From IMG/VR virus record IMGVR_UViG_3300028844_006632: a DNA stretch of 64,000 bases; one strand, 5' to 3'. Shown one piece after another: positions 23,046 through 57,852 of this stretch (within the stretch, counting starts at the first letter, position 1; the number at the start of each line of letters is the position of its first letter). The notes beneath the pieces were generated by a model. It did not search any database, was not told where the DNA came from, and worked only from the letters and a program-made list of their open reading frames with translations. The DNA is from an uncultured virus (IMG/VR IMGVR_UViG_3300028844_006632) (taxonomy: Duplodnaviria; Heunggongvirae; Uroviricota; Caudoviricetes). The position numbers were made by a program, and so were the translations under genes.

Positions 23046-23047
23046 AC

Positions 23048-25446: not shown

Positions 25447-25450
25447 ATTT

Positions 25451-26410: not shown

Positions 26411-26414
26411 TTTT

Positions 26415-27569: not shown

Positions 27570-27596
27570 ATTCTCCTATTGTTGTGTAATACTTTT

Positions 27597-27604
27597 TATA
27601 AATA
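27597..27604 (-). promoter_or_regulatory. TATTTATA upstream motif
   Basis: Exact motif in gap upstream of gmd. Confidence 0.55.
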
Positions 27605-27661
27605 TTTGGTTACAAGTTTTTTTAAATTATTCTTACTACTTTTTATATTAATTTTTGCATC

Positions 27662-29915: not shown

Positions 29916-31630
29916 TTAAAGATTTTCAATTCCAGCATAAGTTTCTTCAAACGAATAGCACTTCGCACCAATGTCCATATAAACTTCAAACGGAAGTTTA
30001 CAAGCAATGGGTGTACCTGGTTTACTGTTTGCATTAAACCAAAGTAATGCTTCGTAATCCGATTGTTTACCTTTAAAGTTAGGTTTTCCCATTCTCAACC
30101 ACTCTTTCATAATTAAATAGTCACGATAATCCACACGATAGATTCCTGTACTATGCAATGATTTCTCGGTTCTACCATCCCGAATATTACAATCCCTTAA
30201 AACCTCTCTGAATCCTGGTCCTCTGTATGGATTTTCTACCCAATTATTAGACAATATAAATCTCAATGAATTTACATCTGGAAACGATTCAACTCCCAAC
30301 AACCATGCCATATAATATTCAACATCTTTATTTTGTATTAAATCGTCTCCTGGAATATGAACATCTCCATAATAATAAGATGTATCACACGCAAACTTTG
30401 CAGTTAACATATTTGGTAACTTTGCAGTTTCAGGACAATCTCCTCTGTTACTATGATACTCACATATACTCGTGGGTCTTGACATTATATAACACTCAAG
30501 TATTTTTAAATCAATTTCATCTACCTCACCATCTTCATTAAAATCACTACTTACTTCATCAATGCCCGTTGATATTATCTGCACACCTGTATCAACTCCG
30601 ATTCCTAACGCAGAAATTAGTCCTTCTGTATCTTCACCTTCCTCACCACGTTCATGTATAATAAGACGATTGTCCGCAAGAATATTTATATCTCCATCTT
30701 GTATAGACTGATATGGCAATCGTCTTGTATCTGGTGTTGCACTCTTACTTTTTGCAAATTTAACTACATCCGTAGGTTTTCCCTGTTGTACCCAATTCCA
30801 CGAAATATTATAGTCAGAGAAACTTATTTCTCCATCCATATCAAAATCAAAAAAGAATTTGTTATTTAGCAGTTTTTGACTTACTTTGTTTTTCGTAACA
30901 TCTTCAATTTTTATTGATCCATTCTTGGTAATAAAATTTCTTAGATCAGTTAACTCATCATCTGACGTTTCTGTGGTGTTTGTATATTGACCCTTTATTT
31001 GCTGATCTGACTTTCCAAAGTAGTTATCAACCCAAGGTTCATTTGAAATTATCACACTTGGTTGCTTGGGTTGTTCACTTATAGTTTTGCGTTTTGTTTT
31101 GAGTTTAGTTTTTATTTTTTTATTAGCATATAAACTTCTAACAGATTTACTTTTATCTATATCTGATTCATTCGTTAATGAAAATTTATTATCTTCTAAA
31201 ATATGAGAATCATTGCTTTGGATTGCTTGATACGGAATTCGTCTTATATCAGAAGTTACACCTAGATTCTTTGCAAATTCATCGATACTTGTGGGTTTTC
31301 CTTGTTGTACCCACTGCCATGCGATGTTGTAGTCAGAGAAACTTATTTCTCCATCCATATCAAAATCAAAAAAGAATTTGTTATTTAGCAGTTTTTGACT
31401 TACTTTGTTTTTCGTAACATCTTCAATTTTTATTGATCCATTCTTGGTAATAAAATTTCTTAGATCAGTTAACCTGTGGTGTTTGTATATTGACCCTTTA
31501 TTTGCTGATCTGACTTTCCAAAGTAGTTATCAACCCAAGGTTCATTTGAAATTATCACACTTGGTTGCTTGATTTCATTTGATAGTTTGGTATCATTGAT
31601 TGACCTTGATATTCTTCGTTTGGTACTCAT
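29916..31630 (-). CDS. Multi-dockerin/EF-hand-like repeat protein, frameshifted near its 5' end
   Basis: Canonical Ca-loops DFDMDGEISFSDY (x2) and DFNEDGEVDEIDLKIL; probable start 31630 (MSTKRR...) hits TAA at 31469-31471 because of a 16-nt deletion; main frame 29916-31472. Confidence 0.7.
30811..31068. repeat. Direct repeat copy 1 (258 nt)
   Basis: Identical to 31330-31571 except for extra 16 nt at 30955-30970 (tcatcatctgacgttt). Confidence 0.95.
31330..31571. repeat. Direct repeat copy 2 (242 nt, 16-nt deletion)
   Basis: See copy 1; deletion junction at 31473/31474. Confidence 0.95.
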
Positions 31631-31644
31631 TTACCAAATACCAA

Positions 31645-34600
31645 TTATATCATACTCGTGAATTCAGATATATCTTCGTGGTATAATTCAATGAAAGATA
31701 AATCATCGTCAAGTCTACCATCGGGAGTTACATCAGGTAAGTGAGTTAACCATAAGGAATCTTTTTGTGGGTCTGTGCCACTTGTTGTATAGTATGAAAG
31801 TTTCGTTTCGTATGTAAATTTTACATAGTTTTCATCGGATACTGAAAAATGACTTTTTACTGCAAATTGTGGTTTAAAATCAAGTCTGCCTTTTATTAAA
31901 GCATAAACTCCTGCTTCGTCTTGTGATACTTTAAGTATTTCGTAACGGTGGCCACCTCCACTTGCGAAATCAAATATTAGTTCATTTCCTACTGATAGTC
32001 CTTGTACATTTGTATAAATTCTAGTCGCAAAAGATGTTTCAAAAGAACCATTCAGATTCTGCATATCTTTTATTTCCATATTAATTGGTACAGAATAATC
32101 AAGTGCAAATGAATTTTCGGATGTATCTTTAACACGATATGTTCCGTTTATGGCCGCATTTCGTGTTGCTCCTGTGATTGTTATATAATCACCTATATTA
32201 AGATGTGGATTTAAATCCGCAACAATATTCAATGTTCCGTTTGCAGTCATCCAAGTTGTTAATATTGTTGCAGTTGTTGCATCTGGTGAAAAACCTGTTA
32301 CTTCACGAACTTTTTCATTAGAATTATACCCAACACTCACCCCACGATACATTAATTTGTTTGCCGAATCCCGTGCAGTTGTAAAATAACCAGGACTTGA
32401 GTATGATACATTTCCTGATTTTATCGTTTTATTAACATACACACGATACTGATTATTGTTGATTTTCTCAATTGGACAATTTTTATTGCTTATGCTTTTT
32501 GATAGCATTACCCGTGAACTACCTGCTTCTATTAATTTAATAGGAACAATTTCTTGTTCATTTATTTCTTGAAATTGATTATTTTCTGAATATCCTTCGT
32601 TTCGTTTTACAATATCACAACAATCTTCTTGTTCATCAAAGTCTCCGTAAACTCTATATGAATCTACTTCGTCAAATATTCCGAGCAAATTATATGCAGT
32701 TGGAATAATTGTATAACAAAATGATTTTTGAAGAGCATAAATTCTAAGTGTTCTGTGGTTCAAAAATTTAAGTCGTTCAAAGTCAAAAGAAACTTCACCA
32801 AAAACTGACTTCATTAAAATATCATCTAATTTTCTTACCGTATATTGACCAAGTTGTGGATTGGTGCAATTCTCAGACTTCATAAGAATTTGCTCAGGCA
32901 TTACAATAGGATTTTTTTGTATTTGTTTTATTTCTGCGATTTCTTTGTTGTAACTTTGATGAAACGCATAAACTGAAAATGATTCTTTTTCAATGACTTG
33001 TTCTTTGATTAAAAATAAATTTGAATATAAGTCATGTAGTTTTTCTTGATGTGTTCTGTGTCTTGGTGCAAGAACCTTTACATATAACAAAGAGAATAAA
33101 TCAGAGAAGTCTACATCTAGTTCACTACTCTCCATGAGTTCACGAACATAATAATCGTTGATGTATTTAAGATTGTTACTATTGCTTTGAATTTGGTCAA
33201 CAATTACTTCACAAAACTTTTCACTTTTTTCATGCTTGAAAGCAAACTCACCGAGTAAATTAAAAAATAATATTCGTGTAAGTTCTTCAAATGAAATTTC
33301 ATCTGTCCACATATAAGTGGTCATATAATCTCTTGATATTAAATCTATATCTTTTCGTATTCCAAGAAAACGATTTATTTGCTCACGACAAGTAACATAG
33401 TTTTTGTTTTGTTTTAATAGTTCAAAGAATAAGGTTGATATAATATTTGCATCAAAGTATCCAGGAATATTTCTGTATACACATTTTACATTACTTTCAA
33501 GTGCAGGTTCAAGACCACTTACTGATTCTATAACTAAATCGTTTGCATCAATATACGAATCAAGTCCTACATGAAATACACCATTTTTATATGTAGCAAC
33601 TTTCTTTAGTTCTTCGTCTTTGTGTTTTAATGATACCTTCGCACCAAAAACAAAATTGTATCCTGTAATCACACCCGATATATAGTTGGCATTTTTGACG
33701 GAAATATTACCTTTTGGTGCAGAGGGAATATTCACAAGTTCATAATATAAATAATCAGGTGTTTTATCGTTTGGTAATACAATAAGTGGATATACCCAAT
33801 CTTCTGTATTATAGAATCCATCATCCGATCCGAGTTCATTTCCCTCGGCATCGTACATTTTAAAAATTACCGCAGTTTCATCAAAGTTAAATTTATATTT
33901 GTTGTTGCGAAGTAAAATTAAATCTCTCCAAGCATATTCAATTTTGCTTTCTTTTGATTTAATAATAAGTTCACCATCAATCATAGTTACATCATATTCG
34001 CATTCAATTCCAGTTGTTTTTGGAAGTTCATCTTCAAACTCTACAACTCTTCTGAATTTTTCTTTTTCTTCTATATGCTCAAAGAAATCTAAATGAATAC
34101 GAGGATCTTGTTCAATTTCAAACTCTACACTTGTTTTATCTTCACATGGACATACAACATCACATCCACGCATAAAATCTTTTGGTTCAAGTTTTTGATA
34201 TTCAAAATGAACATCTACATCACGGTCAGGCATTTTACCTGTAAACTCAGTTATCCATTCGGTGTGACCATGAAGTCTAAGAAACTTATATTCTTGATTT
34301 GGTCCTGGTAAAAACTCAATTGTTGCACCAGGAAGCACTTGAAACGCATGAAATTCATCGACAAAGTGTTCTTTTCCATTGATACGAACAGAACTTGCAA
34401 GGTCTTTTATGTTTGTGTAAACTCTAAGTTCTTTTTGAGGTATTGGTGTAAATGTTGGTGTAGGAGTTTGTGAAACCGTAGGTGTAGGTGTAATTGTAAC
34501 CGTAGGTGTAGGTGTTTCTGGTAATATACTATCATTGATATTATCAGGTTCAAAGTTACAATGATATTTTACAAAATTCTTTACGATTTTAAGTGAGTCG

Positions 34601-35322
34601 ATTTCACCAAGAAGATACGAGTATTCTTGATTAGTTCCTTTACCTCTACCGATTTCTATGCTTGTTGGTTTTTGGTAATTTATATCACTCTCAAGAGCAT
34701 CCTGAGTTTGCCGTCCGTTTACATAGAAACTAAGTTTGCTTCCTTTTCTTACAATCGCAAGGTGAGTCCAACGACCTCGTGGAATCACTACCTCTGATTT
34801 GTATATTGTATCGAGTGTATCTGCTTCAATGAAAACTACTTCATTGGTATTAGAATCATAGTAAATAGAAAAAGCATTTTTAAATGTTGCAATTGGAAAT
34901 AATCCTTCGTCAAGATTATCTGTTGTTCCTCCTTTTGAACAATCTCCAATTGGATTTAATATATTATCAAATCCTGTGCTTTTTGTTAATTTACCACGAT
35001 ATGCTTGTCCTGTTGGTGAAACATATACAACTTCTTCGTTTGAAAATTTTCCGACTGCTTTTATTTTACCGTATATAGTACGATTATTGATTCTAATTGT
35101 TACACCAAACGGATTGCTTATACCATCTAAAATTAAATCGTGAAAGCATAACCTACCACCAGGTTCAAAGAACTGAACACTTATACCATTTTTTGCACCA
35201 CGATCAATAGCATCTCCGTATGTTTCGATACTATTACTGAATCCATCACAACATAAGAATTTATCTTGTATATTTGATGGAATTTCTATTTCGTTGGATT
35301 GAATCGGATTATCGTTACTCAT
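31645..35322 (-). CDS. Large modular putative structural protein (CC module, LamG-like, Pro/Thr linker)
   Basis: LamG motifs WTHLAIVRKG...FYVNG...GEIDSLKI; TPTPTVTITPTPT linker; no signal peptide. Confidence 0.8.
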   Translation of the reverse strand: MSNDNPIQSNEIEIPSNIQDKFLCCDGFSNSIETYGDAIDRGAKNGISVQFFEPGGRLCFHDLILDGISNPFGVTIRINNRTIYGKIKAVGKFSNEEVVYVSPTGQAYRGKLTKSTGFDNILNPIGDCSKGGTTDNLDEGLFPIATFKNAFSIYYDSNTNEVVFIEADTLDTIYKSEVVIPRGRWTHLAIVRKGSKLSFYVNGRQTQDALESDINYQKPTSIEIGRGKGTNQEYSYLLGEIDSLKIVKNFVKYHCNFEPDNINDSILPETPTPTVTITPTPTVSQTPTPTFTPIPQKELRVYTNIKDLASSVRINGKEHFVDEFHAFQVLPGATIEFLPGPNQEYKFLRLHGHTEWITEFTGKMPDRDVDVHFEYQKLEPKDFMRGCDVVCPCEDKTSVEFEIEQDPRIHLDFFEHIEEKEKFRRVVEFEDELPKTTGIECEYDVTMIDGELIIKSKESKIEYAWRDLILLRNNKYKFNFDETAVIFKMYDAEGNELGSDDGFYNTEDWVYPLIVLPNDKTPDYLYYELVNIPSAPKGNISVKNANYISGVITGYNFVFGAKVSLKHKDEELKKVATYKNGVFHVGLDSYIDANDLVIESVSGLEPALESNVKCVYRNIPGYFDANIISTLFFELLKQNKNYVTCREQINRFLGIRKDIDLISRDYMTTYMWTDEISFEELTRILFFNLLGEFAFKHEKSEKFCEVIVDQIQSNSNNLKYINDYYVRELMESSELDVDFSDLFSLLYVKVLAPRHRTHQEKLHDLYSNLFLIKEQVIEKESFSVYAFHQSYNKEIAEIKQIQKNPIVMPEQILMKSENCTNPQLGQYTVRKLDDILMKSVFGEVSFDFERLKFLNHRTLRIYALQKSFCYTIIPTAYNLLGIFDEVDSYRVYGDFDEQEDCCDIVKRNEGYSENNQFQEINEQEIVPIKLIEAGSSRVMLSKSISNKNCPIEKINNNQYRVYVNKTIKSGNVSYSSPGYFTTARDSANKLMYRGVSVGYNSNEKVREVTGFSPDATTATILTTWMTANGTLNIVADLNPHLNIGDYITITGATRNAAINGTYRVKDTSENSFALDYSVPINMEIKDMQNLNGSFETSFATRIYTNVQGLSVGNELIFDFASGGGHRYEILKVSQDEAGVYALIKGRLDFKPQFAVKSHFSVSDENYVKFTYETKLSYYTTSGTDPQKDSLWLTHLPDVTPDGRLDDDLSFIELYHEDISEFTSMI

Positions 35323-35343
35323 AACATCATATTATGTATAATG

Positions 35344-35351
35344 TATAAATA
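35344..35351 (-). promoter_or_regulatory. TATTTATA upstream motif
   Basis: Exact motif in intergenic gap. Confidence 0.55.
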
Positions 35352-35376
35352 TATAACTTTTTTTATTTACCGAAAA

Positions 35377-38300: not shown

Positions 38301-39123
38301 TTATAGTAAACAAACCATCATTTTGCTCTTTTGCAGTTGCAAGTATTAAATATTTTCTTAAATTATAGTCTACACGAACACACAAAAATTCGGGAATTTT
38401 ATTTTTAATATATAATCCTGATTTATTTTCTTCATCGTTTATTGATGGTAAATTTAATTTTTTTGGTGGTTTGTTTGTCCAATCTCTTAAATTAATTACA
38501 GAGTTTACTTCACTTACATTATCTGCTAATACTCTAAATATACCATCTGACATATATGTAGCATTTATCTGAGTGGTTTCGTCTTGGTCTATTGGTGCAA
38601 AGTCTAGTGTTTCTACTGGTCCTTTTGGTCCTCCAACACACTCAGTTGTTGGTAAGTGTTTAATATCTGTGGTTGTTTGTGAAATCTTTTTTAATTCTTG
38701 TTGACCAAGTAACCACGATTTAAAACTCTCAAATTCTCCCAATTCTTCATTTAAATCGGGTCTCTCCATATCAACCCAAGATTGATACGCAGTATAATAT
38801 ATTATATCATCTATTTTTAACTTACCTTCACTTTCTGTGAAAGATGCACAATTTAATCCTGGTGTAAAATCTTCAAATGCAGGTAAACGAATAATCTCGG
38901 TTGTTAGTTGTGTAAATTTCTTTGCATTTACTTGAGATTGATAATACTCTTTAAATTTAAGTAATCTTGCTTCACCCTCTAGTGCTTTAATTTCATCGTA
39001 CTCATCTGTGGTATCTAACCAATATTGAAATCCTGTGTAAACCGACAAATCATCAATAGTAATTTTTGCTTCAGAGACTTCGTCTGTAAATGTATATTTA
39101 TCTGAACAACAATCTTCCATCAT
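35377..39123 (-). CDS. Large modular protein: paired dockerin-like repeats, four Ig-like (Big) repeats, probable beta-propeller
   Basis: Ig repeats LADGDYTLTVESVDSRGNIS, AEDNAGNKS, DGTYTITVTATDESGNIS, IDKAGNKS; N-terminal ITIDD...FQYW / LKIDD...YQSW pair. Confidence 0.8.
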   Translation of the reverse strand: MMEDCCSDKYTFTDEVSEAKITIDDLSVYTGFQYWLDTTDEYDEIKALEGEARLLKFKEYYQSQVNAKKFTQLTTEIIRLPAFEDFTPGLNCASFTESEGKLKIDDIIYYTAYQSWVDMERPDLNEELGEFESFKSWLLGQQELKKISQTTTDIKHLPTTECVGGPKGPVETLDFAPIDQDETTQINATYMSDGIFRVLADNVSEVNSVINLRDWTNKPPKKLNLPSINDEENKSGLYIKNKIPEFLCVRVDYNLRKYLILATAKEQNDGLFTISTEGNAVTTLNCIALDITEYEPSVDATSVYLQYKEIYDKKSEYYIQDIEVKQGNPFYHCDFEDKTYRFNMSPYELPNLYGAEWIDTPGLYVNKETYSTSRWGWKHGEDDVKFNFYLTKKNDETKITHSKNSELTEYTLPNNLADGDYTLTVESVDSRGNISDQSLTSTFTIDTTLPTIDSVSVESEKTTNGKYKITWSWSGTGDKYNVKLGDDGTYSSRENNSFTSIATVISDTTYKLFVNAEDNAGNKSSSTIKSITIDVTPPSKVEIKPEFTTGTAPNTQDTQPKFTWTDYTEEIEYYTVNLTQNDQSLEGYPKNVNDKYYIVSSDLPDGTYTITVTATDESGNISEEYSYTFTIDTTYDETPNPTTTSPTDTLTPTFTWSDFVGNTGETYKFGVRFGKAVTNFEDLTETVTTEKSFTPSANIEVGITYKIYVCSIDKAGNKSEYGQFDVIKNADGPIINTEYEIANDRNSIEVSSNFNEIITHGIGINGNYYTWNSATSSFEHKQEVPLDTSTTEQNVYNTTDYGKAKSKRLRTSYFPMFIKDTLVYVEQASDNSIGPSYYCTIARWPGEGQYGTGTKCSNTKTLRYTQFGRTVEYSLFDLYYFQANVNYSGYRILKSNGDTLSKETNWKTSFPTKTWKESSTFSSEHNVLICTEFVNTDNQKYHAPASKSGTKKYPYIPSSLTNEYKNTDVFYKASGFQWRECNGSYKNANGNPGHVRIRNHSSSYAQNPFNNAYGLCFYHLVGGKWVKKKNVIYSPENASQNAFPNFLQKYSSFTKDNTIHINAISYDAKSLISAKYIPNTQTYQVVGITQIDTDLYGKYDSNHVFALSESIILVVVQDKEYKSKIMKIYQVDGSTDSHTELWSFTYTDKNIEDINISEDRTNVCILTKDTENKYEIGIFTTSGDKQKLNYLENANLQSTSGIRINSLHISNNFNSTNDGKSYTNVKRVIYSQSGIKFIDFHSENDNVI

Positions 39124-39127
39124 CTAT

Positions 39128-39135
39128 TATAAATA
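39128..39135 (-). promoter_or_regulatory. TATTTATA upstream motif
   Basis: Exact motif 4 nt upstream of ATG 39123. Confidence 0.55.
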
Positions 39136-39167
39136 TGAATGGAGTTGTTTATTTTCTTATAAAAAAA

Positions 39168-40445
39168 TCAGCAGATACTTCCTACAGGATTACCTTCACT
39201 TAATTTAAGTTTGTCACCATTTAATTTCTTAAAATAAAACTCGTTTAATAAAGGTTTATCGGTATCTGTGTTGCTCATTCCACTATTGCTATAATATACC
39301 ATATTAGCACCTACCCACTTCTTTTTGTCCATATCTATACCGTCATCACGAATATATTTTAGATTTGAACCAACAGGTTCATAAGAGTGAGACTTTCCAC
39401 TTTCTAATAAAAACTCAAGTTGATATGCATTTTCTCCGTTTTGATAATCCCATACTCCATCACACACTAAATCAAGTTTACCAGGAAAGTTAAATGCTTT
39501 GTTTAGTAAATCCTTAAAGTTATCTGCTTCGTAACTCGGTTTTATTAATGAATCAAGCATTATCACTTCCGTTACTAAATTTACATTGCTTGATAAATAC
39601 TCATTTAGTTTCGTTTCATAATCAGGTTCACATATTTCGAATCGTGTATAAGATAGTGGTTTCTTATAGTATATAACGAGTTCACCTGCCTCGGCATAAA
39701 TATATTTCCCATTTAACTCATTTGCATCTAATTCCGATGAAATATTTAACCAAGGAAACGCAATGTTATTATCAAGAGCAATGTACTGCATTGACTGACC
39801 ATCTTCTTCTCCAATTGGAGTACCTCCGAGTGTATTTGCAACAATATTAAAAGTTGCTACATTGTCAAGAACTATTCTAAATAATTTTTCTTCAGAACCA
39901 CGAACCTTGAAAAATTGTGAATGTGAATATGCAGTTTGCGATAGAAAACCAATCCAAAGATTCTCAATATACTGAATGCTATTTTCGTAAAAAGTTCCAG
40001 TTGTGGTCGTTGGGGTTGGGGTTTGAGTAGCACTCGGTGTAAATGTCGGAGTTGATGTTGGTGTTAAACTAGGTGTGGATGTTGGTGTTGGTGTTGGTGT
40101 ATCTTCAGGAAGTCTTACACACGAGTCTGCAAGCATTCCTTTCTTTTCTTGATTGGCATAGGTTGCTACAAATCCGGGTATCTCAAGAAATGAAGTTCCT
40201 GGTTTTAAAACTATCATATATCCAAATCCACACTTTAACTTTGTAAAGTCATTATTCTCAATAGATAAACTCGGTTCATATGAAAATCCTTTATTCTGAT
40301 CATCATATATAAAAACCTTATATAAAACATCTTTATTTAATCCTGTTAAATCAAAGTCAACGCATTCTGTGTCATCGTCTTCACATTTACCATACCATCC
40401 ATGAATAAATTTGTATTCGTTTTGTCTTTGATTTAGTGTTGCCAT
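39168..40445 (-). CDS. Modular protein: GWYG module, Pro/Thr linker, LWIGF module
   Basis: Internal paralogy with 49730-52234 and 56134-57852. Confidence 0.75.
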   Translation of the reverse strand: MATLNQRQNEYKFIHGWYGKCEDDDTECVDFDLTGLNKDVLYKVFIYDDQNKGFSYEPSLSIENNDFTKLKCGFGYMIVLKPGTSFLEIPGFVATYANQEKKGMLADSCVRLPEDTPTPTPTSTPSLTPTSTPTFTPSATQTPTPTTTTGTFYENSIQYIENLWIGFLSQTAYSHSQFFKVRGSEEKLFRIVLDNVATFNIVANTLGGTPIGEEDGQSMQYIALDNNIAFPWLNISSELDANELNGKYIYAEAGELVIYYKKPLSYTRFEICEPDYETKLNEYLSSNVNLVTEVIMLDSLIKPSYEADNFKDLLNKAFNFPGKLDLVCDGVWDYQNGENAYQLEFLLESGKSHSYEPVGSNLKYIRDDGIDMDKKKWVGANMVYYSNSGMSNTDTDKPLLNEFYFKKLNGDKLKLSEGNPVGSIC

Positions 40446-40473
40446 TTTAAATTCCTAAATTTTATCTACATAC

Positions 40474-40481
40474 TATAAATA
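40474..40481 (-). promoter_or_regulatory. TATTTATA upstream motif
   Basis: Exact motif in intergenic gap. Confidence 0.55.
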
Positions 40482-40497
40482 TATACTTTTTCAAAAA

Positions 40498-43308: not shown

Positions 43309-43328
43309 TGCAAATTATTTACCATTAT

Positions 43329-43336
43329 TATAAATA
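43329..43336 (-). promoter_or_regulatory. TATTTATA upstream motif
   Basis: Exact motif in 28-nt gap. Confidence 0.55.
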
Positions 43337-48232: not shown

Positions 48233-48237
48233 CTGAA

Positions 48238-49290
48238 TTATCCTTCTACTTCCTCAGTGCTACAAGTAACAATGTGGTATCGTTCTACTTTTTCCGTTTC
48301 ATCGTATACACGAATATCTGCAACTTCTATATCGTTGCTTATTTCTTGAATTTTTTTCCAACGGTCTGCTTTCACACGAAAAACAATAATGCCAAGTTTA
48401 CTTTTTTCTTCTCCGTCTCCACCCTCGGTTGTATCTATAAAACCAATCACAGAACGATTTTTTCTTGGTTCAGAACCATTTGTTCTAATTGAGTAATCAT
48501 AGTAATAGTTTAATGTAGGTTTGCCGAGTGTATCTTTAAATTCTTCATTTATCAAATTTTGTTTGTCAACCGTAAGACCTGTATTTCCGTTTTCGTCTGT
48601 TGAAAATTCAATGTTATCAAATACCAACTCAACTGCTTTAATACGTTGCGTATCATAATTTGCATCAGGATGTACCGTGGCAGTTGCATCAAATGTTACT
48701 ACCAGGTCACCCTGTGTAGCAGGTTCAAGGTCAACTGATGTTTCTAGTCCATCACCACCCTTTGCAATGTTTCCTGTTCTATGCTTTATATACCACTCAC
48801 TTTCAAGTGAAGGAAGGTGCATCAATTTGCTTGTAGTTTGTGGTATACGATTTAATGATTGCTCAAACTCAAACCAAAATAAAAATCTACCGAATTCACC
48901 GTCACCTTCATAAATTTTACCATCAGCACGATCAGGTTTTTCTAAATCGTTCCATCTTTGAAATGCCATATAATAAGTTAAATCATCAATGTTAATTTCA
49001 GTCAAAGAATTACCAAGTGAAGTTTCGGTATAATTAGCACAATCGTAACCTGAGTTGCTTTCTGTTTTTGGTAGATATTTTAGTTCAGAAACAAGAGGTG
49101 GAAGTTTTTTTAATTCAACTTCCCGTTGTCTCCAATCTTTAAAATTTTCCAACTCAGAATTATTTTCATCGTAATTTGGTCCCGCAGGAGTACCTGTATC
49201 TAACCATGATTGATATGATACTAAAATAGAAATATCATCAATCGTAAAAGAACCGGTTTTGGTAAAATCGTCGTGGCAACAAAAATTCAT
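48238..49290 (-). CDS. Paired dockerin-like repeats plus cohesin-like domain (adaptor-like)
   Basis: DFTKTGSFTIDDISIL and NYTET...INIDDLTYY; C-terminal beta-rich domain IKAVELVFD...IGFIDT...IIVFRVK...IEVADIRVYD. Confidence 0.6.
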   Translation of the reverse strand: MNFCCHDDFTKTGSFTIDDISILVSYQSWLDTGTPAGPNYDENNSELENFKDWRQREVELKKLPPLVSELKYLPKTESNSGYDCANYTETSLGNSLTEINIDDLTYYMAFQRWNDLEKPDRADGKIYEGDGEFGRFLFWFEFEQSLNRIPQTTSKLMHLPSLESEWYIKHRTGNIAKGGDGLETSVDLEPATQGDLVVTFDATATVHPDANYDTQRIKAVELVFDNIEFSTDENGNTGLTVDKQNLINEEFKDTLGKPTLNYYYDYSIRTNGSEPRKNRSVIGFIDTTEGGDGEEKSKLGIIVFRVKADRWKKIQEISNDIEVADIRVYDETEKVERYHIVTCSTEEVEG

Positions 49291-49295
49291 AACAT

Positions 49296-49646
49296 TTATC
49301 CTATTTGATTACATTCACTAGGTGAGTAAAAAAAGTCACTTGCATCGTGGTCTCCGTTTACTGCATGAGGTATATCCTGAGATAATACTCCATCTTCGTT
49401 TGTTCTTAATTTAATATAGTAAGCATTTCCACATAATAATTTACTAAAATCATTTTCTGAATTTTCATAGTTCCAATGTGTTTGATTTCCAATTGAATCT
49501 GTTAACCAAACTTGCTCTATATTATTACCTAAGTTTAAGTCGAATGGTAAACACTCACCGATTGGTTCATTGTTGGTAGTTTCTGTGGTTTCACAGATTC
49601 CATACCAAATAAAATTATGCAATTTAGTTAGTGTAGCCATATTCAT
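49296..49646 (-). CDS. Stand-alone GWYG module protein
   Basis: IWYGIC...CLPFDL...DFSKLLCGNAYYIKL. Confidence 0.75.
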   Translation of the reverse strand: MNMATLTKLHNFIWYGICETTETTNNEPIGECLPFDLNLGNNIEQVWLTDSIGNQTHWNYENSENDFSKLLCGNAYYIKLRTNEDGVLSQDIPHAVNGDHDASDFFYSPSECNQIG

Positions 49647-49685
49647 TTAGTCAACTTAATATACATAAATATATAACTAAATGAA
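49642..49685 (-). promoter_or_regulatory. 10-bp inverted repeat enclosing TATTTATG motif and covering start codon
   Basis: ttcatttagt (49642-49651) / actaaatgaa (49676-49685); motif variant at 49664-49671. Confidence 0.5.
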
Positions 49686-49729
49686 AATACATTGATAATA
49701 ATAGAATTCTGCTAAATTTTAAGTTTTAT

Positions 49730-52234
49730 TTAAGAACAATAACCACCCGATGGATTTTCTGCGTTATCAGAGAACTTGATGTTACTAATGCCACCACCAG
49801 TATTTTTAACAAAATAGAATTTTTGTATAGTTGCTATATCGTTTTTATTAGGCACGGTGCTAAGTCCTACGTTAGTATAATAGTGAAGTAAGGAATTTTT
49901 CCATGGACCAGATCCACGAACAGGAGGTGATGATTCAACATTAACCGGAACTGCATATGTTAAGGATGCAGTTCCTTGTTCCGTTGGAACTACAAACACC
50001 AGTGCAGATGATGTTGACGTAGGTGGATCACCGGGTTGTATTTTACCCTCAACATCTTCTCCGCAATTTAACTTAATTCCATTGTCAAAACGAAATGATT
50101 TAGCCATTAATTCATCAAGTTGTGTTTGACTCATATTATTTGGATCTTCTTTACTATGCAATAATATTACCTGAGTTGCCATGTTGAATAGATTTCCACC
50201 ACCTTCTTGTTGAGCACTTTTGTATGCTTCAATTTCTGTCGCAAAATTTGGATCTATAATTTCAAACTCAGTTACATCAAGTGAGGTGGTCATTTGTCCA
50301 TAGGTTTTTCCATCTTTTTCAATCACAGGCCATGGTAACGGATCTCCGTTTTCGTCTGTTGCAAGTGGTGGCAACGATTCAAATCCCACTGCCTTTAGGT
50401 CATCAGGACCATACGGTTGCATAAGTGGACATGGAGTATATCCCGATTTTGTTGTTACTGCGACACAACTAAGTGCACCAGCAACATTATTATATGAAGT
50501 CAAATTACTAAACTCAACATCATATGTTTTTCCTTCGTATCCAAGAACCTTCCAATATTTGGAGAAGTGAGATTGTTGTTGGGCTAAAAATCCAATCCAC
50601 AAATCAGGATATGTTTTTGCACCCGCAGCCGGAGTTATTGTTCCTCTAAGTTCTAAGTTCATTTTAAAATCGTTGTTTGTTTTATCTTTGTGTGTAAATG
50701 CTGGTGTTGCAGTGAAATCAATTGAGCAATTATATTCACCTTCTGCTTGATCTGCTTTTAATCTAAATTTTACAGATGCGTTGTTGGATGAATCTGCTAT
50801 ATCAAATAACTTAACTGGTCCTTTTGATGGTGTATTTACATCAAGTCCAAATCCTTTTAAATCTTCCCACTCTCCGTTGTAATTGATTTCCCATGCAGAT
50901 GCGTTATCGGTTTCGTTTACTTGTGTAATTGCATAACTTCCAATCCACTTACGAGTAAATCCAATGGTTTTTGCATCACTTGGTCCACCTGTTCCGTCTT
51001 GGGTTAATTGATATTCACGTGTAATATAACGATTACTTCCACTACCATTCGTTGATGTAAGTGAAAAACTTGGAACTAAATTTAAAGTTTCAGATGCATT
51101 TATTTTATCGGTAATTTGACCAAGTTTTGCATAATCGTTTCCGTCTAATTTTTTATAGTTTGTAGTTGGATTAGTTTCATGTATACCATGCGACTCTACA
51201 CCCAATTCAACTGGATAAACCCAGTTACTTGCAGGTGCTTCATTACAATCCAATTCAAGTGATATATCCTTAGTTTCATTGAATGTTACATTTTCTAAAT
51301 CAAAAACAACGGGTGAACCACCTTTGTTAACTGCATTGAAATTCATTGCATCAACATCTTTATATGTCCACTTTGAATTAGAAAGTTTAGTATATGTATG
51401 CACCAAATCCACAGGTACTTTTACTGTATTTTTTTGATCATTTAATACAACACTTGATTTATTGTATTTTAAAATTCTATCAAAAACTTTTCCTTTGAAT
51501 ACCTTAGATTTACTAGCATTTGCATATAAAGGTGTTTCTCCATCGGTGTCTTTACTGCTTGCTTGTCCTGATAATTTTATTGTTATATCATATAATTTGT
51601 GAACATTATTTCCTGCTTGCAATCCATCTTTGAAATAAAAAGTAATTTTAATTGGACTTGGTGTTATATCCAAATTAGTATCACCTGCATTAAGTTGCAG
51701 TTTTGCTCCGTCTCCAATTGTATATTCCCAAGCAGTTGCGGGTCCTGATATGTTCATTGTAAGTAAATCTATGTTTTTATGAACAATTGTTAATTCAGTT
51801 TCTAATCCTGTGACACCCACTTCATACTCACGATATTGTTTGTCAAATTCTCCACCAAGACTTAATTCAGGTGCTGGTCCTTCTTCAAAACACATATCAA
51901 TTAATCTTTTCGATTCAGTTGTATTTGAATCAGTAAACTCAAAACTAGGAATATTTAATTTAGCATTTCCTTTTTTCAATACAACATAATAAGCACGTCC
52001 ACATTTGAGTGTAGTTAAAGATTGGGTGATTGTATCACCATGAACGTGGTCTGCGTATGTAGAATAAAAAATTGGACGACTTGTATCTGATCCGTTTATC
52101 TCATAGATATGGTCTATTTTACCTACCTCTACTTTATTATCATCTGATGTTAGATCATAGTCGTCACACTCACAACGACCATACCAACCCAACGCAATTC
52201 GTTTACTATTTGGCAATTGACTTAATTCTTCCAT
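49730..52234 (-). CDS. Modular protein: GWYG module, beta-rich middle region, LWIGF module
   Basis: GWYGRC...LKCGRAYYVVLKKG...IPSF; DLWIGF...FYFVK...NPSGGYC. Confidence 0.75.
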   Translation of the reverse strand: MEELSQLPNSKRIALGWYGRCECDDYDLTSDDNKVEVGKIDHIYEINGSDTSRPIFYSTYADHVHGDTITQSLTTLKCGRAYYVVLKKGNAKLNIPSFEFTDSNTTESKRLIDMCFEEGPAPELSLGGEFDKQYREYEVGVTGLETELTIVHKNIDLLTMNISGPATAWEYTIGDGAKLQLNAGDTNLDITPSPIKITFYFKDGLQAGNNVHKLYDITIKLSGQASSKDTDGETPLYANASKSKVFKGKVFDRILKYNKSSVVLNDQKNTVKVPVDLVHTYTKLSNSKWTYKDVDAMNFNAVNKGGSPVVFDLENVTFNETKDISLELDCNEAPASNWVYPVELGVESHGIHETNPTTNYKKLDGNDYAKLGQITDKINASETLNLVPSFSLTSTNGSGSNRYITREYQLTQDGTGGPSDAKTIGFTRKWIGSYAITQVNETDNASAWEINYNGEWEDLKGFGLDVNTPSKGPVKLFDIADSSNNASVKFRLKADQAEGEYNCSIDFTATPAFTHKDKTNNDFKMNLELRGTITPAAGAKTYPDLWIGFLAQQQSHFSKYWKVLGYEGKTYDVEFSNLTSYNNVAGALSCVAVTTKSGYTPCPLMQPYGPDDLKAVGFESLPPLATDENGDPLPWPVIEKDGKTYGQMTTSLDVTEFEIIDPNFATEIEAYKSAQQEGGGNLFNMATQVILLHSKEDPNNMSQTQLDELMAKSFRFDNGIKLNCGEDVEGKIQPGDPPTSTSSALVFVVPTEQGTASLTYAVPVNVESSPPVRGSGPWKNSLLHYYTNVGLSTVPNKNDIATIQKFYFVKNTGGGISNIKFSDNAENPSGGYCS

Positions 52235-52251
52235 AATATTTTATTCCATTG

Positions 52252-53007
52252 TTACGCATCTAATACGCATATTCCTTGTAAATTAATTATTCCTGTTAAA
52301 CACGTTCCTTTTAGAAAACCGTATTTTTCTATATCATTGTATTTTACATCATCTATTGTAAATTTAACTTCTGTGTTTTCTTTTAATTTGCCAAACATAG
52401 CAACTGAACCTAAGTAAATCTTTTCATTATTATGATTTAAATAGAATTTTGTGCTACTTGGAAATCCTGTTAGTATCTCACCAAAGCATAATTCTCCTGA
52501 AAATTTAAAAGGCATCGTTGTAACATTATCTTCAAATTTGCGAGTAAAATACGATACTGCATAAATATTTGAAGCATCTGCACAACATTCATAAATCGGA
52601 GATGATACCTTTGGAAATATTTTATTTTCATCATAACCAGATGGTTCACCACCACAATTCTCTGTAAGTCTGTGTGGATTATCTGTTCCGTGACTAGAAA
52701 ATACGAAACCTGGAATATCAATGCTTCCGTTTCCTTTTTTTAATATAATTCTATAAATCGTACCACACTCTAATTGTTTTATTGGTAAATTTTTAATCAA
52801 CAATGACATTGTGTATGTACCTTTATATGAAACAAGACCTTGATTATTTGTACTTGTAGCATAAATTGCATATATACTATCGTATTTATACGAATATGTA
52901 GAACCTTCAATATTCAGCAAATCAAATGGTTCACATTCATTCTTGCAAGTACCATACCACCCTGAATAGTACATTAAACTTGTTTCGTTTTGATTTAGTA
53001 TTGCCAT
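52252..53007 (-). CDS. Modular protein: GWYG module plus CC module
   Basis: GWYGTC...CEPFDL...LECGTIYRIILKKG...IPGF; ECC...SGELCFG. Confidence 0.75.
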   Translation of the reverse strand: MAILNQNETSLMYYSGWYGTCKNECEPFDLLNIEGSTYSYKYDSIYAIYATSTNNQGLVSYKGTYTMSLLIKNLPIKQLECGTIYRIILKKGNGSIDIPGFVFSSHGTDNPHRLTENCGGEPSGYDENKIFPKVSSPIYECCADASNIYAVSYFTRKFEDNVTTMPFKFSGELCFGEILTGFPSSTKFYLNHNNEKIYLGSVAMFGKLKENTEVKFTIDDVKYNDIEKYGFLKGTCLTGIINLQGICVLDA

Positions 53008-53008
53008 G

Positions 53009-56000
53009 TTAATAATCCGTTGTTTTCTCCAACATAATAACCTCAGATGCTAATGAGATTATTCCAATCCAACACACTTGGTCTGAACCTTGTTTGTAAA
53101 TTATTTCGGAATTATCTATTACATTTTTAGATGTAAATGATAATATACCACCAAACGACTCATCACTTGCAACGATTCCGAAACCGTAATCAGGTGCGGA
53201 AATATTTTCATCATAATTTTGTATACACAACTTATCATTTGAAGTAAATCCAGAAATAGTAATTCCGTTTTCTGTGTATGGATTATTCCCACTTGCGATT
53301 TCTTCAGTTATTCCAAATGAAGTCAATCCATTACAACAATCATCGGATGGTTCGTCTTCAATTCGTGTGGGTGTAGGTGATTTCAAAGTTTCATCATCTG
53401 TTGGTGTGGGTGTAGGTGATTTAAATTCTTTATCAGTTTGCTCGTTATTTTGCTTTTTCAAAATTAATACATCAGTTGTTGTATTTATTTCTGCTATATA
53501 ACAAACACCACCCGAGGTAGTAAACGACAAAGTAGAACCATTTGTTACTGCTTTTGCTGAAAATGTTATTATACCAGAAAATGTTTCTAATTCATCTATA
53601 AAACTCAGTGTCAAATCAGGAGCAGATACATTTTCTTCATAATTTTGCAAGCAGACCTTACCACCGATAATAAATCCTGAAATTGTAATCCCATTTTGAG
53701 TATATGATTCGGTTGCATTCTCAATTGATTCGGTTATTTCCACAACCAAATCATCTTCACCACAACACTCTATTGGTGAATCGTCATCTAAAAATGTAGG
53801 TGTTGGTGATGTAGAATCTTCTTCCTCTGTGAATGTCGGTGTAAACGATGGTGTTTCACTGGGAGTTTCCGTTGGTGTGAAAGACGGTGTATATGTAGGA
53901 GTTAAAGTTGGTGTAGGTGATGGTGTATATGTAGGTGTTGGAGTAAATGTTGGACTTGGAGTTGGTGTTGGAGTTGGATGAAATATAAACTCAACTTCAA
54001 TATCTTCAATAATTTTCTTTTTTTCAGTTAAAGTTTCTTTTATTGAGTCTTTTGTTTCTTCAATTTTATTATCAACCAAATCTTTCTGTTCCACGATTTC
54101 TTTAACATACTCAATGGTTGATAATATGTTTTTTGCTACATTTTGTATTTCATCAACGAAGTCAACTTCTTCTTCACCTTCGGATGGTTGAATTTCAGTA
54201 TCAATAGTTTCAATAACAACTTCAGATATAGATTTTACATTACTTACAATATTACTTTCTTCGGTGATGCTTTCCACTTTATCTTCGGATACTACATTCT
54301 TTACAATATCCACAACTTTTGTGTTAATAAGTTCTTTTATATTAACATCTTCATTGGATTCTTCTTCCGCAACTTTTGTTTTTTCAAATTCAGTTACAAT
54401 AGACTCAAATATATTATCTTCTTCAACGGAAGTTTCAACTTCTGTTACGATATTTTTAAGAGTTTCTGTAATCACCGAAAGTTTTGCATTTGCTTTTAAA
54501 ACTTTCGTATTTGATTCATTGATATAATCTGTTTCTAAATCTTCCGCAGGTATTTCAAATTTCTTTGCAACAAAAGTTTTTGTTTCAACAATGATAGTAT
54601 CTACTTCGTCTAAGTCGATTTCCTCTTCTTCTGATTTTTCTTCAATAATCTTTTTGATTTTATTTTCTACCATTGCAGATTTAAGTGTTGTAACAGGACT
54701 AATGTTTATAGTCTTTGACGACAATTCAATTGTTTCTTTTTTAGTTGCTATATTTGAAAATGTTGTTTTAACTTCTTTATTAGTTAGAATGTCAGTTCCA
54801 CCCGGTAAGAATTTTATTTTGTATAAAGTTGGAAGTTCATTATCAGGAACCACAATACTCCATTTACCATAAGCATCGGTTACAAATTCTTTTATTATTT
54901 CATCGGTTTCTAAATCTATTAATTGTCCTGGTGCATTTTTTATGTAACCATCAAGTAAATATCCACCCAAATCAATATCAATTATTGTCGGAGTTGGTGT
55001 ATACGAAGGTGTTGGTGTATACGAAGGTGTTGGGGTAAAAGTAAGAGTGGGTGAATCACTCGGAGATGGTGTTATGGATGGTGAGTGTGGTGTGTCCTTA
55101 ATTGAAGGTGAATAAGACGGAGTATACGACTCTGTTGTTGTTGGTGTAAATGTTGGAGACGGTGAATCAGTCGGAGTTGGTGAATCAGTCGGAGTTGGTG
55201 AATCAGTCGGTGTTGGTGATGTAGTTTTTGTGGGTGTGGGTGTAGGTGTGGGTGTAGGTGTTGGGGTTTTTTCACGAATATAACGAGTAAAACGGTATAC
55301 ATTTATTTCGTGTTGTGTTTGTGGAATAACTTCAATCGTAGGTGATGCTATATAACAAAGATTTCCTTTTGAATATACAATTTTATCATCATCAATGAAT
55401 TTACCTGAAATTGTGATCGCACCTGCAGGTGCAGTTTCTTCTCCGAAAAACGCATAATAAGTTTTAGGCAACTCAGGATCACTATCACCGAAACACAAAG
55501 TTGCACCTATACCATCGTTTCTATACCACTCGGCACTTAGATTTGCTTCCGCAGGATTCGGAGATGCTTGTATTTCATATGTAAATGATGTTCCGTCTCC
55601 TTGCCATACTCCACAATCTACGCAACAATCCTTCAGATACAATCCTTGTGATCGTGTAACTACATAATCTTCGTGGAATAACGAAGGAAGATGCTTTGCA
55701 GAAAAAGATAATGAAGGAAGTAGTCCACGATCAACCTGTGTTTGATAATATACATCAAAATCATTTATATCAAGTATCGGAGACTTTCCACGTTGAAGAA
55801 CCCATGATTGAAATGCTGACATTATATTAACATCCGATACATTTATCGCACCTGTTTCTGTGAAATTAGAACAATCAAATCCATAGTGTGGATCTGTGGG
55901 CATATCTTTAACAGGACGAGAAAGTGGTGGAAGAGTTCCTTTATCAACCAACGATTGATAATATTCCATAAACTTTTCTTTGTTGGCAAGGTCGAGTTCT

Positions 56001-56122
56001 TGAGAACTTTCGTTTGTTACTCCAAGTGCATCTACCCAAGACTGAAATGCAGCGAGTATATTTACATCACTGATATTTATTCTACCAGTTCTTGTGTAAT
56101 TATCATGGCAACATAAACTCAT
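53009..56122 (-). CDS. Large modular protein: paired dockerin-like repeats, three CC modules, long Pro/Thr/Ser linkers, acidic helical region
   Basis: [22 protein letters not shown] / [22 protein letters not shown]; ~95-aa PT/PS tract; LLDGYI...TDAYG...GGTD...ISPVTTL domain. Confidence 0.8.
55161..55215. repeat. Coding tandem repeat, 3 x 18 nt (PTDSPT)
   Basis: ggtgaatcagtcggagtt repeated within the Pro/Thr linker. Confidence 0.85.
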
Positions 56123-56133
56123 AATTTAATCTC

Positions 56134-57852
56134 CTAGCAAGCACTTCCCCTTGGATTTCCTTGTGAGAAATCAATTTTTTGTGATTCGTCTGTTCCTCTA
56201 ATAAAGTAAAACTCTTTTATACCGATTCGGTTTTCACCACTTGAGTCATTCATTAACGATGTGGGTTGTGGTGCAGTATAAACCATATTTGCTCCTGCCC
56301 AAGGTTTACCGGGTGCTAAGTAACCATGATTCGGTCCCCAATGTCCGTATTTAGCAAGAAAGTTTCCACGTTGCGAATCAAACGCATCTATTCTCAAATT
56401 AGCAAATAAAGTTGGTTGCTCCAATTCATAGTTCCATTCATCGTTACATTTCAAACTAAGCAAACTTGAATTAAACGAACTTGCTCTTTGTTGTGAATTT
56501 AGTTTCTCTCCAGGTCTATTTTCACTCATTGTTATCATAATCCCCTGAATATTAGATACTCTTGCACGGTCTGCTTTTTTACCATTTGCCCAATTCCACA
56601 AATCGGTATCATAATCTGAATCACTAATAACAAATCTTGAGTATCCCATCGGAACGGTTACCGTAACTTCAAGGTTACCTGCTGTATTTTTCTTGATTAT
56701 CGCACCATTTAATTGGGAAATTGTTACTCCATATACCACCGAAGGATCATTTGCAAACGGTGATAATATCTCTGATATATAATTTTCATCTTGAAATACA
56801 TCTCCCTCTTTAACTTCATTCAAATTAAAGTTTTCACGGAACTTGTTGTAACCTTCAAGATTGTCAAATGGAACGGTTACCTCTTTTGTATCAATCGTAT
56901 CAACTTCATAAAATGGAGAATAATATCCTTCACCTGTAAATCCAATCCAAAGTTTTTCTTTTGGTGTATAGGTTGGAGTTGGTGTTCTTGTGGGTGTTGG
57001 AGTTGGAGTTGGATCAGCAACTGCTGGTGTACACAAAATATAATCGTATGTATTGCGTTCAATTGTTGTATCGAAAATATTTGCAGAAACAACTTCTATT
57101 TCACCATCGTTTGCAGTTTCATATGGAATTCTAAATTTAAATGATGTTTCATATTCTTCTTCAAATGAAATACCTTTTCCAAATTCACGAAGATCAGCAA
57201 ATCCAAATTTATTAAAACGATTTTTATTTCGTCCATAACTCATCATGCTTGTGGTTCTTTCCGACAATTCTTTATACAAATCAGATTTTTCAGTATCTTC
57301 TTTTCCTATCGCAGAAACGTATTTTTCATCGAAAGTAATCGCAAGTATTTTCTCGGTATTTAATACAAGATTGTGATTAAATATAATTTCAACTCCACGA
57401 ATAAATTTATTGGTTCCTGCGGGATCAAGTGAATATAAGTTGATTGTTAAATCAAAACGATCAGGACGAATATTATCAACGAAAAACGAACATTCAATTA
57501 CAGGTACACAATTCTCTGTGATTCGTTTAGGTGTAGCATCTTCATCAGTTTTAGCAAATGTTCCTACTGCTAAGTTTGGTATTTCGAGTTCTTCGTCAGG
57601 ATTTATTTTATCCGTGGATTTTAATTTAATTACATATGGAATACCACATATTAGTTCATTAAAGTCTCCGAGATTTAAATTATCAGTAGATGATGACCAA
57701 TGCATCCAACCACTATTAATATCTGACACCTGAAAAACAAAATCAATTTTATCTTTGTATTCTGTTAAATCTAAACTTATACACTCAGGATCATCACAAT
57801 CTCCGTGCCAAACTAAATTATATATTTTATTCAATAATCCCATTTTATCCAA
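56134..57852 (-). CDS. Modular protein: GWYG module, cohesin-like domain, Pro/Thr linker, LWIGF module
   Basis: Middle domain FDLTINL...IRGVEIIFN...FGFADL...FKFRIP...IEVVSANIFD parallels the C-terminus of 48238-49290. Confidence 0.7.
   Translation of the reverse strand: MDKMGLLNKIYNLVWHGDCDDPECISLDLTEYKDKIDFVFQVSDINSGWMHWSSSTDNLNLGDFNELICGIPYVIKLKSTDKINPDEELEIPNLAVGTFAKTDEDATPKRITENCVPVIECSFFVDNIRPDRFDLTINLYSLDPAGTNKFIRGVEIIFNHNLVLNTEKILAITFDEKYVSAIGKEDTEKSDLYKELSERTTSMMSYGRNKNRFNKFGFADLREFGKGISFEEEYETSFKFRIPYETANDGEIEVVSANIFDTTIERNTYDYILCTPAVADPTPTPTPTRTPTPTYTPKEKLWIGFTGEGYYSPFYEVDTIDTKEVTVPFDNLEGYNKFRENFNLNEVKEGDVFQDENYISEILSPFANDPSVVYGVTISQLNGAIIKKNTAGNLEVTVTVPMGYSRFVISDSDYDTDLWNWANGKKADRARVSNIQGIMITMSENRPGEKLNSQQRASSFNSSLLSLKCNDEWNYELEQPTLFANLRIDAFDSQRGNFLAKYGHWGPNHGYLAPGKPWAGANMVYTAPQPTSLMNDSSGENRIGIKEFYFIRGTDESQKIDFSQGNPRGSAC

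Follow-up and report, generated by a model that had tools for sequence, protein, structure and literature searches.

What holds together a set of large proteins that begin alike and end differently? The question is raised by a stretch of 64,000 nucleotides of DNA (the window, below) assigned to an uncultured virus (IMG/VR record IMGVR_UViG_3300028844_006632), which encodes, at 29916-63951 on the minus strand, 16 large proteins without enzymatic domains. The first-pass annotation, made from the letters alone, answered with a candidate cohesin-dockerin system, cellulosome-like, that would mount different adhesins on a virion. The present analysis confirms what that annotation observed and supports its interpretation in part. 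The locus is a modular system, rare and conserved, whose N-terminal modules are interchangeable. One of its proteins, P1, carries what is by sequence a genuine set of dockerin-type units, in a non-canonical array. The preferred reading, held at a probability of about 0.5, is a structural-adhesin block of an uncultured marine large prokaryotic virus, whose virion fibres would carry swappable N-terminal attachment modules.

According to this reading, at least 15 fibre or adhesin proteins would have been built by shuffling lineage-specific modules. Each would open with module A (two EF-hand/dockerin-like loop-helix-helix units), module B or, in P6, a single P1-type unit, and this N-terminal part would fix it to a common virion structure or hub. 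Pro/Thr linkers would come next, probably O-glycosylated and perhaps sulfated by an adjacent 30-kb transferase block; distal binding modules (beta-sandwich, C, D, LamG, Ig-like, BspA-LRR) would come last. P1 and P2 together are the best hub candidate.

A kit of shared modules

Lineage-specific modules A, B, C and D, along with a beta domain, were delimited by BLASTP and by hidden Markov models (HMMs) built within the window; the Pro/Thr linkers that join them are visible in the translations, as first described. Module A consists of two repeats of about 80 residues and is N-terminal in P3, P7 and P11, the sole window genes that its HMM matches; the paired repeats reported there were recovered by BLASTP at E 8e-26, 5e-23 and 9e-14. 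Module B, a 'GWYG' domain of about 115 residues, is N-terminal in P4, P8, P9, P10 and P12, and weak in P15. Module C is Cys-rich, about 100 residues long, with CC at its start; it occurs in P2, P5 (four copies), P10, P11 (two) and P13 (two). Module D, about 270 residues, is the C-terminal domain of P4, P9 and P12. Pfam places LamG domains in P2, P13 and P16, Big_13 in P3, and DUF285/BspA-LRR in P6. PHROGs match the 16 structural-type proteins only through generic LamG, Ig and DUF285 domains, and no hydrolase catalytic domain is among the Pfam matches of the large proteins, as first noted. The map follows, with the basis of each entry in brackets.

29916..31630, minus strand: P1, array of dockerin-type loop-helix-helix-'LP' units (translation, Pfam Dockerin_1, unit HMM)
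31645..35322, minus strand: P2, C module at aa 24-128, LamG at aa 148-247, Pro/Thr linker, conserved 780-aa C-terminal region (Pfam, module HMMs)
38629..39123, minus strand: N-terminal module A of P3 (gene 35377-39123), with three Big_13 Ig-like domains after it (Pfam, BLASTP, HMM)
39168..40445, minus strand: P4, module B at aa 1-113, Pro/Thr linker, module D at aa 162-425 (BLASTP, HMMs)
40498..43308, minus strand: P5, four C modules with Pro/Thr linkers between them (HMMs)
43337..48232, minus strand: P6, giant DUF285/BspA-LRR protein whose N-terminal ~72 aa (48017-48232) are a P1-type unit (Pfam, BLASTP)
48253..48762, minus strand: beta-sandwich domain of P7, aa 177-346 (alignment, AlphaFold2, fold searches)
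48775..49290, minus strand: module A of P7, aa 1-172 (AlphaFold2 model, fold searches)
49296..49646, minus strand: P8, module B alone, 116 aa (BLASTP, HMMs)
49730..52234, minus strand: P9, module B, a middle with a partial D-like stretch, module D at aa 544-833 (BLASTP, HMMs)
52252..53007, minus strand: P10, module B then module C (BLASTP, HMMs)
53009..56122, minus strand: P11, module A (55643-56122), long Pro/Thr linkers, acidic middle, two C modules (BLASTP, HMMs)
56134..57852, minus strand: P12, module B at aa 4-118, beta domain at about aa 115-280 (57013-57510), Pro/Thr linker, module D at aa 300-572 (BLASTP, HMMs, hhalign, phmmer)
57845..61303, minus strand: P13, weak CBM5/12-like stretch, Pro/Thr linkers, C module, LamG, second C-like module (Pfam, HMMs)

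P7 combines module A with the beta domain, as had been proposed. Module A opens three window proteins and module B six, each ahead of differing distal parts, which is the arrangement of phage receptor-binding proteins with anchor domains.

Each C module opens with a vicinal Cys-Cys pair and has about four Cys in all (P5 contains 28 Cys and P13 contains 33); CC likewise stands at the start of module A. Such Cys-rich modules imply, from their sequences, putative disulfides or metal sites in proteins that lack an export signal. The C-terminus of P5 contains TPTPTTGNYYRQ repeats, encoded by a 36-nt unit present 5.1 times at 40517-40699 (97% identity).

Shuffling among rare relatives

The P7-family profile retrieved 53 representatives from 1,835,955,588 proteins. 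Relatives of the P7 and P2 families were found only in marine metagenome contigs (15 loci; two contigs of 359 and 374 kb), and the window stretch recurs, as recurrence only, in marine, seawater and estuary metagenome runs of nine further studies, no RNA run being among those listed. Among GTDB genomes (one genome per species, 185,579 species), none of 315 pattern matches was confirmed for P7 and none of 41 for P2. Names offer little guidance: the P2 C-terminal region and P4 each drew five homologue matches, none with an informative name; a protein-cluster look-up returned no name beyond 'hypothetical protein'; and the ESM Atlas held no usable match for P7 or the P2 C-terminal region.

Modules and gene order recur in at least nine related loci, including a relative at 31% identity (L010). 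The conserved order (L002-L010; window 43337-52234) runs from a B..D gene to an A-beta gene to a giant LamG/DUF285 gene; in L010 a P1-like gene is next. The A-beta gene always adjoins the giant gene, separated by a gap of a few nt only, and the giant protein varies from 1,600 to more than 3,300 aa across relatives. That this order is kept to 31% identity suggests that the small A-beta protein may work together with the giant LamG/DUF285 protein.

Modules A and B are interchangeable before the same payloads. The beta domain follows A in P7 and B in P0038, P0039, P0042, L012 and L013; module D follows A in P0045, P0046 and P0068 and B in P4; module C comes after A in P11, P0043 and P0044 and after B in P10. 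One representative, P0051, has a one-unit A, then beta, then C. The description of a modular locus with shared N-terminal modules and swapped payloads therefore stands, on the BLASTP and HMM map and on the relatives alike.

P1-type units take part in this shuffling. The P6 N-terminus matches P1 residues 338-393 (BLASTP, 34% identity over 58 aa, E 7e-4), bearing out the kinship first noted between the two, and its unit (GDFT...NPYxGPxFxEVL) is kept in six of six aligned relatives. In eight representatives a P1-type unit stands directly before module A; six of these (P0047, P0048, P0049, P0052, P0054, and P0057) read, in order, P2-like C-terminal region, P1 unit, module A, P1 C-terminus. This architecture supports a relationship between the P1 unit and module A. 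Because P1 is fused in these relatives to a P2-like protein and to module A, the choice falls on P1 and P2 as the putative hub.

Dockerin-type units in P1

Is P1 a dockerin protein? The calcium loops first reported are present: DFDMDGEISFSD twice, DFNEDGEVDEID once, and two degenerate units. The three clearer units are:

31224-31373, minus strand: P1 unit U1a, dockerin-type
30699-30854, minus strand: P1 unit U1b, dockerin-type
30396-30551, minus strand: P1 unit U3, dockerin-type, with the two degenerate units after it

Pfam Dockerin_1 (PF00404) scores 30.6 bits in P1, with its best stretch at 30486-30551, and 32.5 bits in P0036, the L010 homologue; the cut-off is 22.9. Dockerins fill the first five places among PDB sequence matches to P1, at weak E values of 0.06-0.62. 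A P1-type unit, 45-80 aa long and found in arrays of two to five, comprises a loop, a helix, a 'G/R-x-P' turn, a second helix and a conserved 'LP'. Its 12-residue D-x-N/D-x-D-G loop and L-x-I-L-x-x-Y-I helix are shared with type I dockerins (1daq_A, 2mte_A, 2vn5_B, 4fl4_A).

The differences from type I dockerins are equally clear. Each Dockerin_1 match spans one half of the profile only (positions 35-56 or 2-23 of 57), and neither P1 nor P0036 has a tandem pair of F-hand segments within ~60-70 aa: the loops lie ~100 aa apart (aa 46 and 147 in P0036, aa 171 and 272 in P1). The second helix and the 'LP' are further departures, as is a context that is enzyme-free, without signal peptides, and probably viral. 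The dockerin assignment thus holds for the Ca-loop/helix units of P1, which score above the Dockerin_1 cut-off, and fails for the canonical two loops within ~70 aa. By sequence, membership of the cohesin-dockerin family is confined to the single-unit signature of P1.

The two copies of DFDMDGEISFSD are due to a recent tandem duplication (window 30955-31474; copy spacings 519 and 503 nt). The P1 reading frame shifts at ~31473, the duplication junction, where the window lacks 16 nt (31473/31474). Contigs of runs X3, X7 and X14 have 34-39 extra letters at the duplication junctions, and in one X15 contig a single copy is present, the two sides being 53 letters apart; the first unit varies in copy number. 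By our own count the junction in those other samples is ~55 nt and in frame, so the frameshift in the window may be an assembly or strain variant.

Module A and the dockerin fold

Module A had also been proposed as a dockerin. Its consensus loop, D-(F/Y)-T-x-T-G-x-F-x-x-x-D, fits the EF-hand pattern, positions 3 and 5 being Thr; insertions are present in some members, and ligand residues have been lost in some (for example DFTNEGVFRQNH). A profile alignment by hhalign places P1-type units on module A units loop on loop and helix on helix (P 0.0097, 22 columns). Dockerin_1 gave no match at E up to 10 to module A of P3, P7 and P11 or to the P6 N-terminus, and module A matched no PDB chain sequence.

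An AlphaFold2 model of the P7 module A (mean predicted local distance difference test score, pLDDT, 79.4; predicted template modelling score, pTM, 0.77) has four long helices, each pair after a loop. Foldseek returned nothing below E 1 for it, and the best score in a wide VIA fold search was Z 3.5. Dockerin chains are four of the 50 entries listed in that search, each aligned over nearly its whole length: 8ajy_D (Z 3.1; root-mean-square deviation, rmsd, 3.8; 75 of 84 residues), 2ccl_B (Z 2.7), 9gvb_C (Z 2.7), and 5m2o_B (Z 2.6). The modelled resemblance is suggestive at most, and module A is no more than putatively dockerin-like.

Modules of this kind need not be connectors. Modules A and B and the P1-type units could instead be Ca2+-stabilised folding, oligomerisation or spacer elements, with the fibres attached by another part. 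The compact four-helix model, without a strong structural relative, would suit such a role; and the unit arrays of P1 and the fusion proteins, each on a single chain, show that packing inside one molecule is possible. Against this, the modules stand strictly at the N-terminus in at least ten window proteins, and the swapping of A and B before identical payloads is the pattern of phage receptor-binding anchor domains as set out in the available text of PMC8825819. The spacer explanation is therefore judged unlikely.

The beta domain

The other half of the original proposal concerned two beta-rich domains, in P7 and P12, said to be related to each other and reminiscent of cohesins. Their relationship was borne out. 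Direct hhalign comparison of the P7 family with the P12 domain is weak (E 0.016, 24% over 172 columns); phmmer with the P12 domain matches A-beta and B-beta relatives directly (P0040, 42 bits), and a second round reaches P7 at 73 bits (E 9e-22, 553-sequence set). On these sequence comparisons the two domains are homologous. The P7 domain has conserved motifs KAVExVFDN, YYYDYSIRT, SVIGFIDTT, and ADxRxxD, and its AlphaFold2 model (pLDDT 75.9) is a beta-sandwich.

The cohesin label fared less well. Pfam Cohesin (PF00963) has no match to either beta domain at E up to 10, and P7-family profiles found no cohesin or dockerin among PDB sequences. Of the two Pfam profiles proposed as a check, Dockerin_1 finds P1 and not module A, and Cohesin finds neither beta domain. 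Structure searches, proposed as a second check, gave no significant match for the P7 module A or beta domain, and weak cohesin matches for the latter only. With the beta model Foldseek found none at E <=1e-3 (best E 8.7e-3), and cohesins make up 20 of the 48 weak rows listed. Cohesins are 13 of the 50 entries listed in the wide VIA search (Z 5.3-6.3), and 20 of the 50 listed when VIA re-scored the Foldseek list (best 6kgf_A, Z 6.5, rmsd 3.9, 114 aligned). The top fold match is the PitA pilin at Z 7.4, and no chain reached Z 8; the typical background level stated for the search is Z 7-8. Pilins, the GH20 N-domain, YcnI (Z 6.5), C3/alpha2-macroglobulin domains, MSCRAMM adhesins/ClfA, and CBM3 score level with cohesins (Z 5.2-6.5) or above them, so the fold is no closer to cohesins than to pilins, macroglobulin domains or YcnI (Z 5.3-7.4).

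Given such generic fold scores and the lack of a Pfam Cohesin match, the label 'cohesin-like' is compatible with the model and not distinctive: the domain is modelled as a generic beta-sandwich. It resembles cohesins, including the non-cellulosomal 2xdh, 2vo8 and 2jh2, in being a beta-sandwich of similar size, and no other family is as frequent among its weak fold matches. It differs from them in having no sequence match, Z scores of at most 6.5, and strongly conserved polar motifs of its own.

Conservation provides a different kind of evidence. Mean pairwise identity is 54.6% in the beta domain versus 41.1% in module A, with beta higher in 78 of 91 pairs, and 32 columns are invariant in the beta domain versus 13 in module A. 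Together with the A-beta gene beside a giant gene that has a conserved P1-type unit, this favours a protein-binding socket over a receptor-binding tip.

Such a socket brings back the original idea of a true cohesin-dockerin plug and socket, in which the P1 units, module A and the P6 N-terminus would bind the beta domains in a Ca2+-dependent manner and P7 would be an adaptor that mounts, for example, P6. The strong conservation of the beta domain and its constant pairing with the giant gene would be in keeping with a socket for a conserved viral partner. Both P1 and its L010 homologue do score above the Pfam cut-off for Dockerin_1, dockerins take the top five PDB places for P1, and cohesins and dockerins recur in the fold lists, the latter covered almost in full by the module A model. 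Yet all these fold scores lie below the noise level of the search; pilins, macroglobulin receptor-binding domains, YcnI and CBM3 do as well or better; and neither Pfam profile nor the P7-family profiles connect the beta domains to cohesins or module A to dockerins. The P1 loops are too far apart for a tandem pair, the Ca-ligand positions of module A are Thr in most members and lost in some, and the beta domain also follows module B, which means that it is not specifically tied to module A. A true plug and socket is accordingly improbable.

A neighbouring block of sugar-modifying enzymes

1..29866, minus strand: ~33 genes for soluble sugar-modifying enzymes (Pfam, PHROG)
16483-18237, minus strand: 584-aa protein with a HATPase_c_3 (GHKL ATPase) domain, in the middle of the block

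The block contains transferases of the GT2, GT8, GT11, GT25, PF03407, NodZ/FUT8-like and PLOD-GT-like families, five sulfotransferases, a GDP-mannose 4,6-dehydratase, two epimerases and three DUF1796 genes. No flippase, polymerase, priming enzyme or exporter is among its Pfam matches. The transferases are distant from those of phage records (24-43% identity). Judged by gene content, the block resembles an apparatus that glycosylates and sulfates proteins in the cytoplasm, and its enzymes are candidates for modifying the Pro/Thr linkers.

There is precedent for viruses that glycosylate their own particles: Mimivirus fibrils are glycosylated by virus-encoded enzymes, and glycosylation of the mycobacteriophage capsid and tail is known. 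As in such systems, soluble glycosylation genes here adjoin surface-type proteins with Ser/Thr/Pro-rich stretches. The differences are that the block here is unusually large (~33 genes, five sulfotransferases) and that linker modification is predicted from genes alone. Alternatively, the block might alter the host surface, a role suggested for cyanophage clusters in the available part of PMC7824862.

Virus or cell?

The window has a GC content of ~31%, and all 49 of its genes (open reading frames of at least 100 aa) lie on the minus strand. Gene junctions overlap in 20 of 48 cases, six by 4 nt. A Shine-Dalgarno-like core (GGAG, GAGG or AGGA, 4-18 nt upstream) precedes 19 of 49 starts versus 116 of 1557 background ATGs (p 8e-10). 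Shine-Dalgarno use, overlapping genes and a single coding strand are gene organisation of the prokaryotic-virus type. No window protein (0 of 49) has a signal-like or membrane-like segment, defined as a 19-residue hydrophobic window with Kyte-Doolittle >=1.6 or a signal-like N-terminus; the first-pass annotation had likewise seen no signal peptides. Extracellular-type domains (LamG, Ig, LRR) without export signals are the pattern expected of virion proteins released by lysis. The available sections of PMC7824862 describe jumbo phages whose fibres have LamG domains, and jumbo cyanophages with glycosyltransferase clusters. The chance that the source is a large prokaryotic virus is put at roughly two in three.

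On the coding strand TATTTATA occurs 20 times (for example at 61323, 43336, 40481, 39135 and 35351), nine of them within 60 nt upstream of a start, including those of P13, P5, P4, P3 and P2. Its placement suggests a promoter motif ahead of the large structural genes. Of the T4-type TATAAATA the window has just two copies, neither of them close to a start.

Could the locus be cellular? An uncultured low-GC marine bacterium or episymbiont might use the large proteins as surface adhesins, exported non-classically, and the transferase block as a surface-glycan island. Proteins of cell surfaces often have DUF285/BspA, LamG and Ig domains, a small cellular genome could yield contigs of 142-374 kb, the window has no viral hallmark gene, and the lineage was not found in the viral contig collection scanned. 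On the other side, the 49 proteins are devoid of signal-like and membrane-like segments; the Pfam matches include no flippase, polymerase, priming transferase, ATP-binding cassette (ABC) exporter or secretion component; P7 and P2 have no relative among the GTDB genomes; and the 64 kb contain no detected tRNA gene and, among Pfam and PHROG matches, no housekeeping gene. A cellular origin is doubtful on this evidence.

Much less probable still is a giant virus infecting a marine protist, its fibrils glycosylated as in Mimivirus. The eukaryote-like transferase types (FUT8/NodZ, GT11, PF03407, carbohydrate sulfotransferases, PLOD-type GT) and the Cys-rich modules joined by Pro/Thr linkers would be at home there. 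The Shine-Dalgarno enrichment, the frequent overlaps and the single coding strand would not, and the same transferase families have PHROG matches in phages.

Several results weigh against a virion-adhesin block as the preferred reading. Neither Pfam nor PHROG found a capsid, portal, terminase, tail or baseplate gene in the 64-kb window, so that the viral origin assumed at first is plausible from gene organisation and lacks a hallmark gene to confirm it. In the viral contig collection scanned, none of 59 pattern matches to P7, none of 6 to module D and none of 108 to P2 was confirmed; tblastn found no match to P10 in the phage records tested; and a BFVD fold search yielded nothing at E <=1e-3. 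Conservation is higher in the distal beta domain than in module A, the reverse of what is usual for receptor-binding tips, which tend to vary more. The anchoring role is predicted from architecture. The Cys-rich modules suggest putative disulfides, which are unusual for proteins folded in the bacterial cytoplasm. Finally, dockerin-type modules need Ca2+ to fold, and this requirement is a poor fit to assembly in the low-Ca2+ cytoplasm.

The calcium requirement could also be turned into a mechanism. Dockerin-derived units (the P1 array, module A and the P6 N-terminus) might plug into the P7/P12 beta socket or into each other, with P7 adapting P6, to form a Ca2+-switched coat of glycan-covered, exchangeable adhesins on a large marine phage. 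Because dockerin-type units need Ca2+, locking of the joints would have to await lysis and release into Ca2+-rich seawater. This remains a speculative version of the plug and socket, with little weight attached to it.

Known systems and implications

If the preferred reading of swappable attachment modules is right, the closest functional analogue is the branched complex of phage CBA120 (Ackermannviridae). There, according to the available text of PMC8825819, the N-terminal anchor domains of TSP1-4 assemble several receptor-binding proteins with each other and with the baseplate; shared N-terminal modules and differing distal parts are common to both systems. The anchors are different: T4 gp10-like and XD domains in CBA120 (same source), EF-hand/dockerin-like units or 'GWYG' here. 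The present system also has more proteins and Pro/Thr-rich linkers, and its association with virions is putative.

The claim that no phage system of this kind had been described needs to be narrowed accordingly. Plug-in N-terminal anchors are known, as CBA120 illustrates in the available account (PMC8825819); none with dockerin-type units came to light. A literature search on dockerins with phage virions or tail fibres found no natural phage dockerin system described, and the words dockerin, cohesin and EF-hand have no occurrence in the available portion of the jumbo-phage overview PMC7824862.

If the N-terminal modules do dock, a dozen or more adhesins could be mounted on one particle from a small connector kit. 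This would bear on the breadth of host range in marine phages, and dockerin-type connectors, familiar from the surfaces of bacteria and archaea, would then be known on virions too. Being compact, and orthogonal to known pairs, the modules would be candidate tools for protein assembly. Moreover, the transferase block beside proteins with Pro/Thr linkers points to extensive virus-directed protein glycosylation, a process barely studied in phages.

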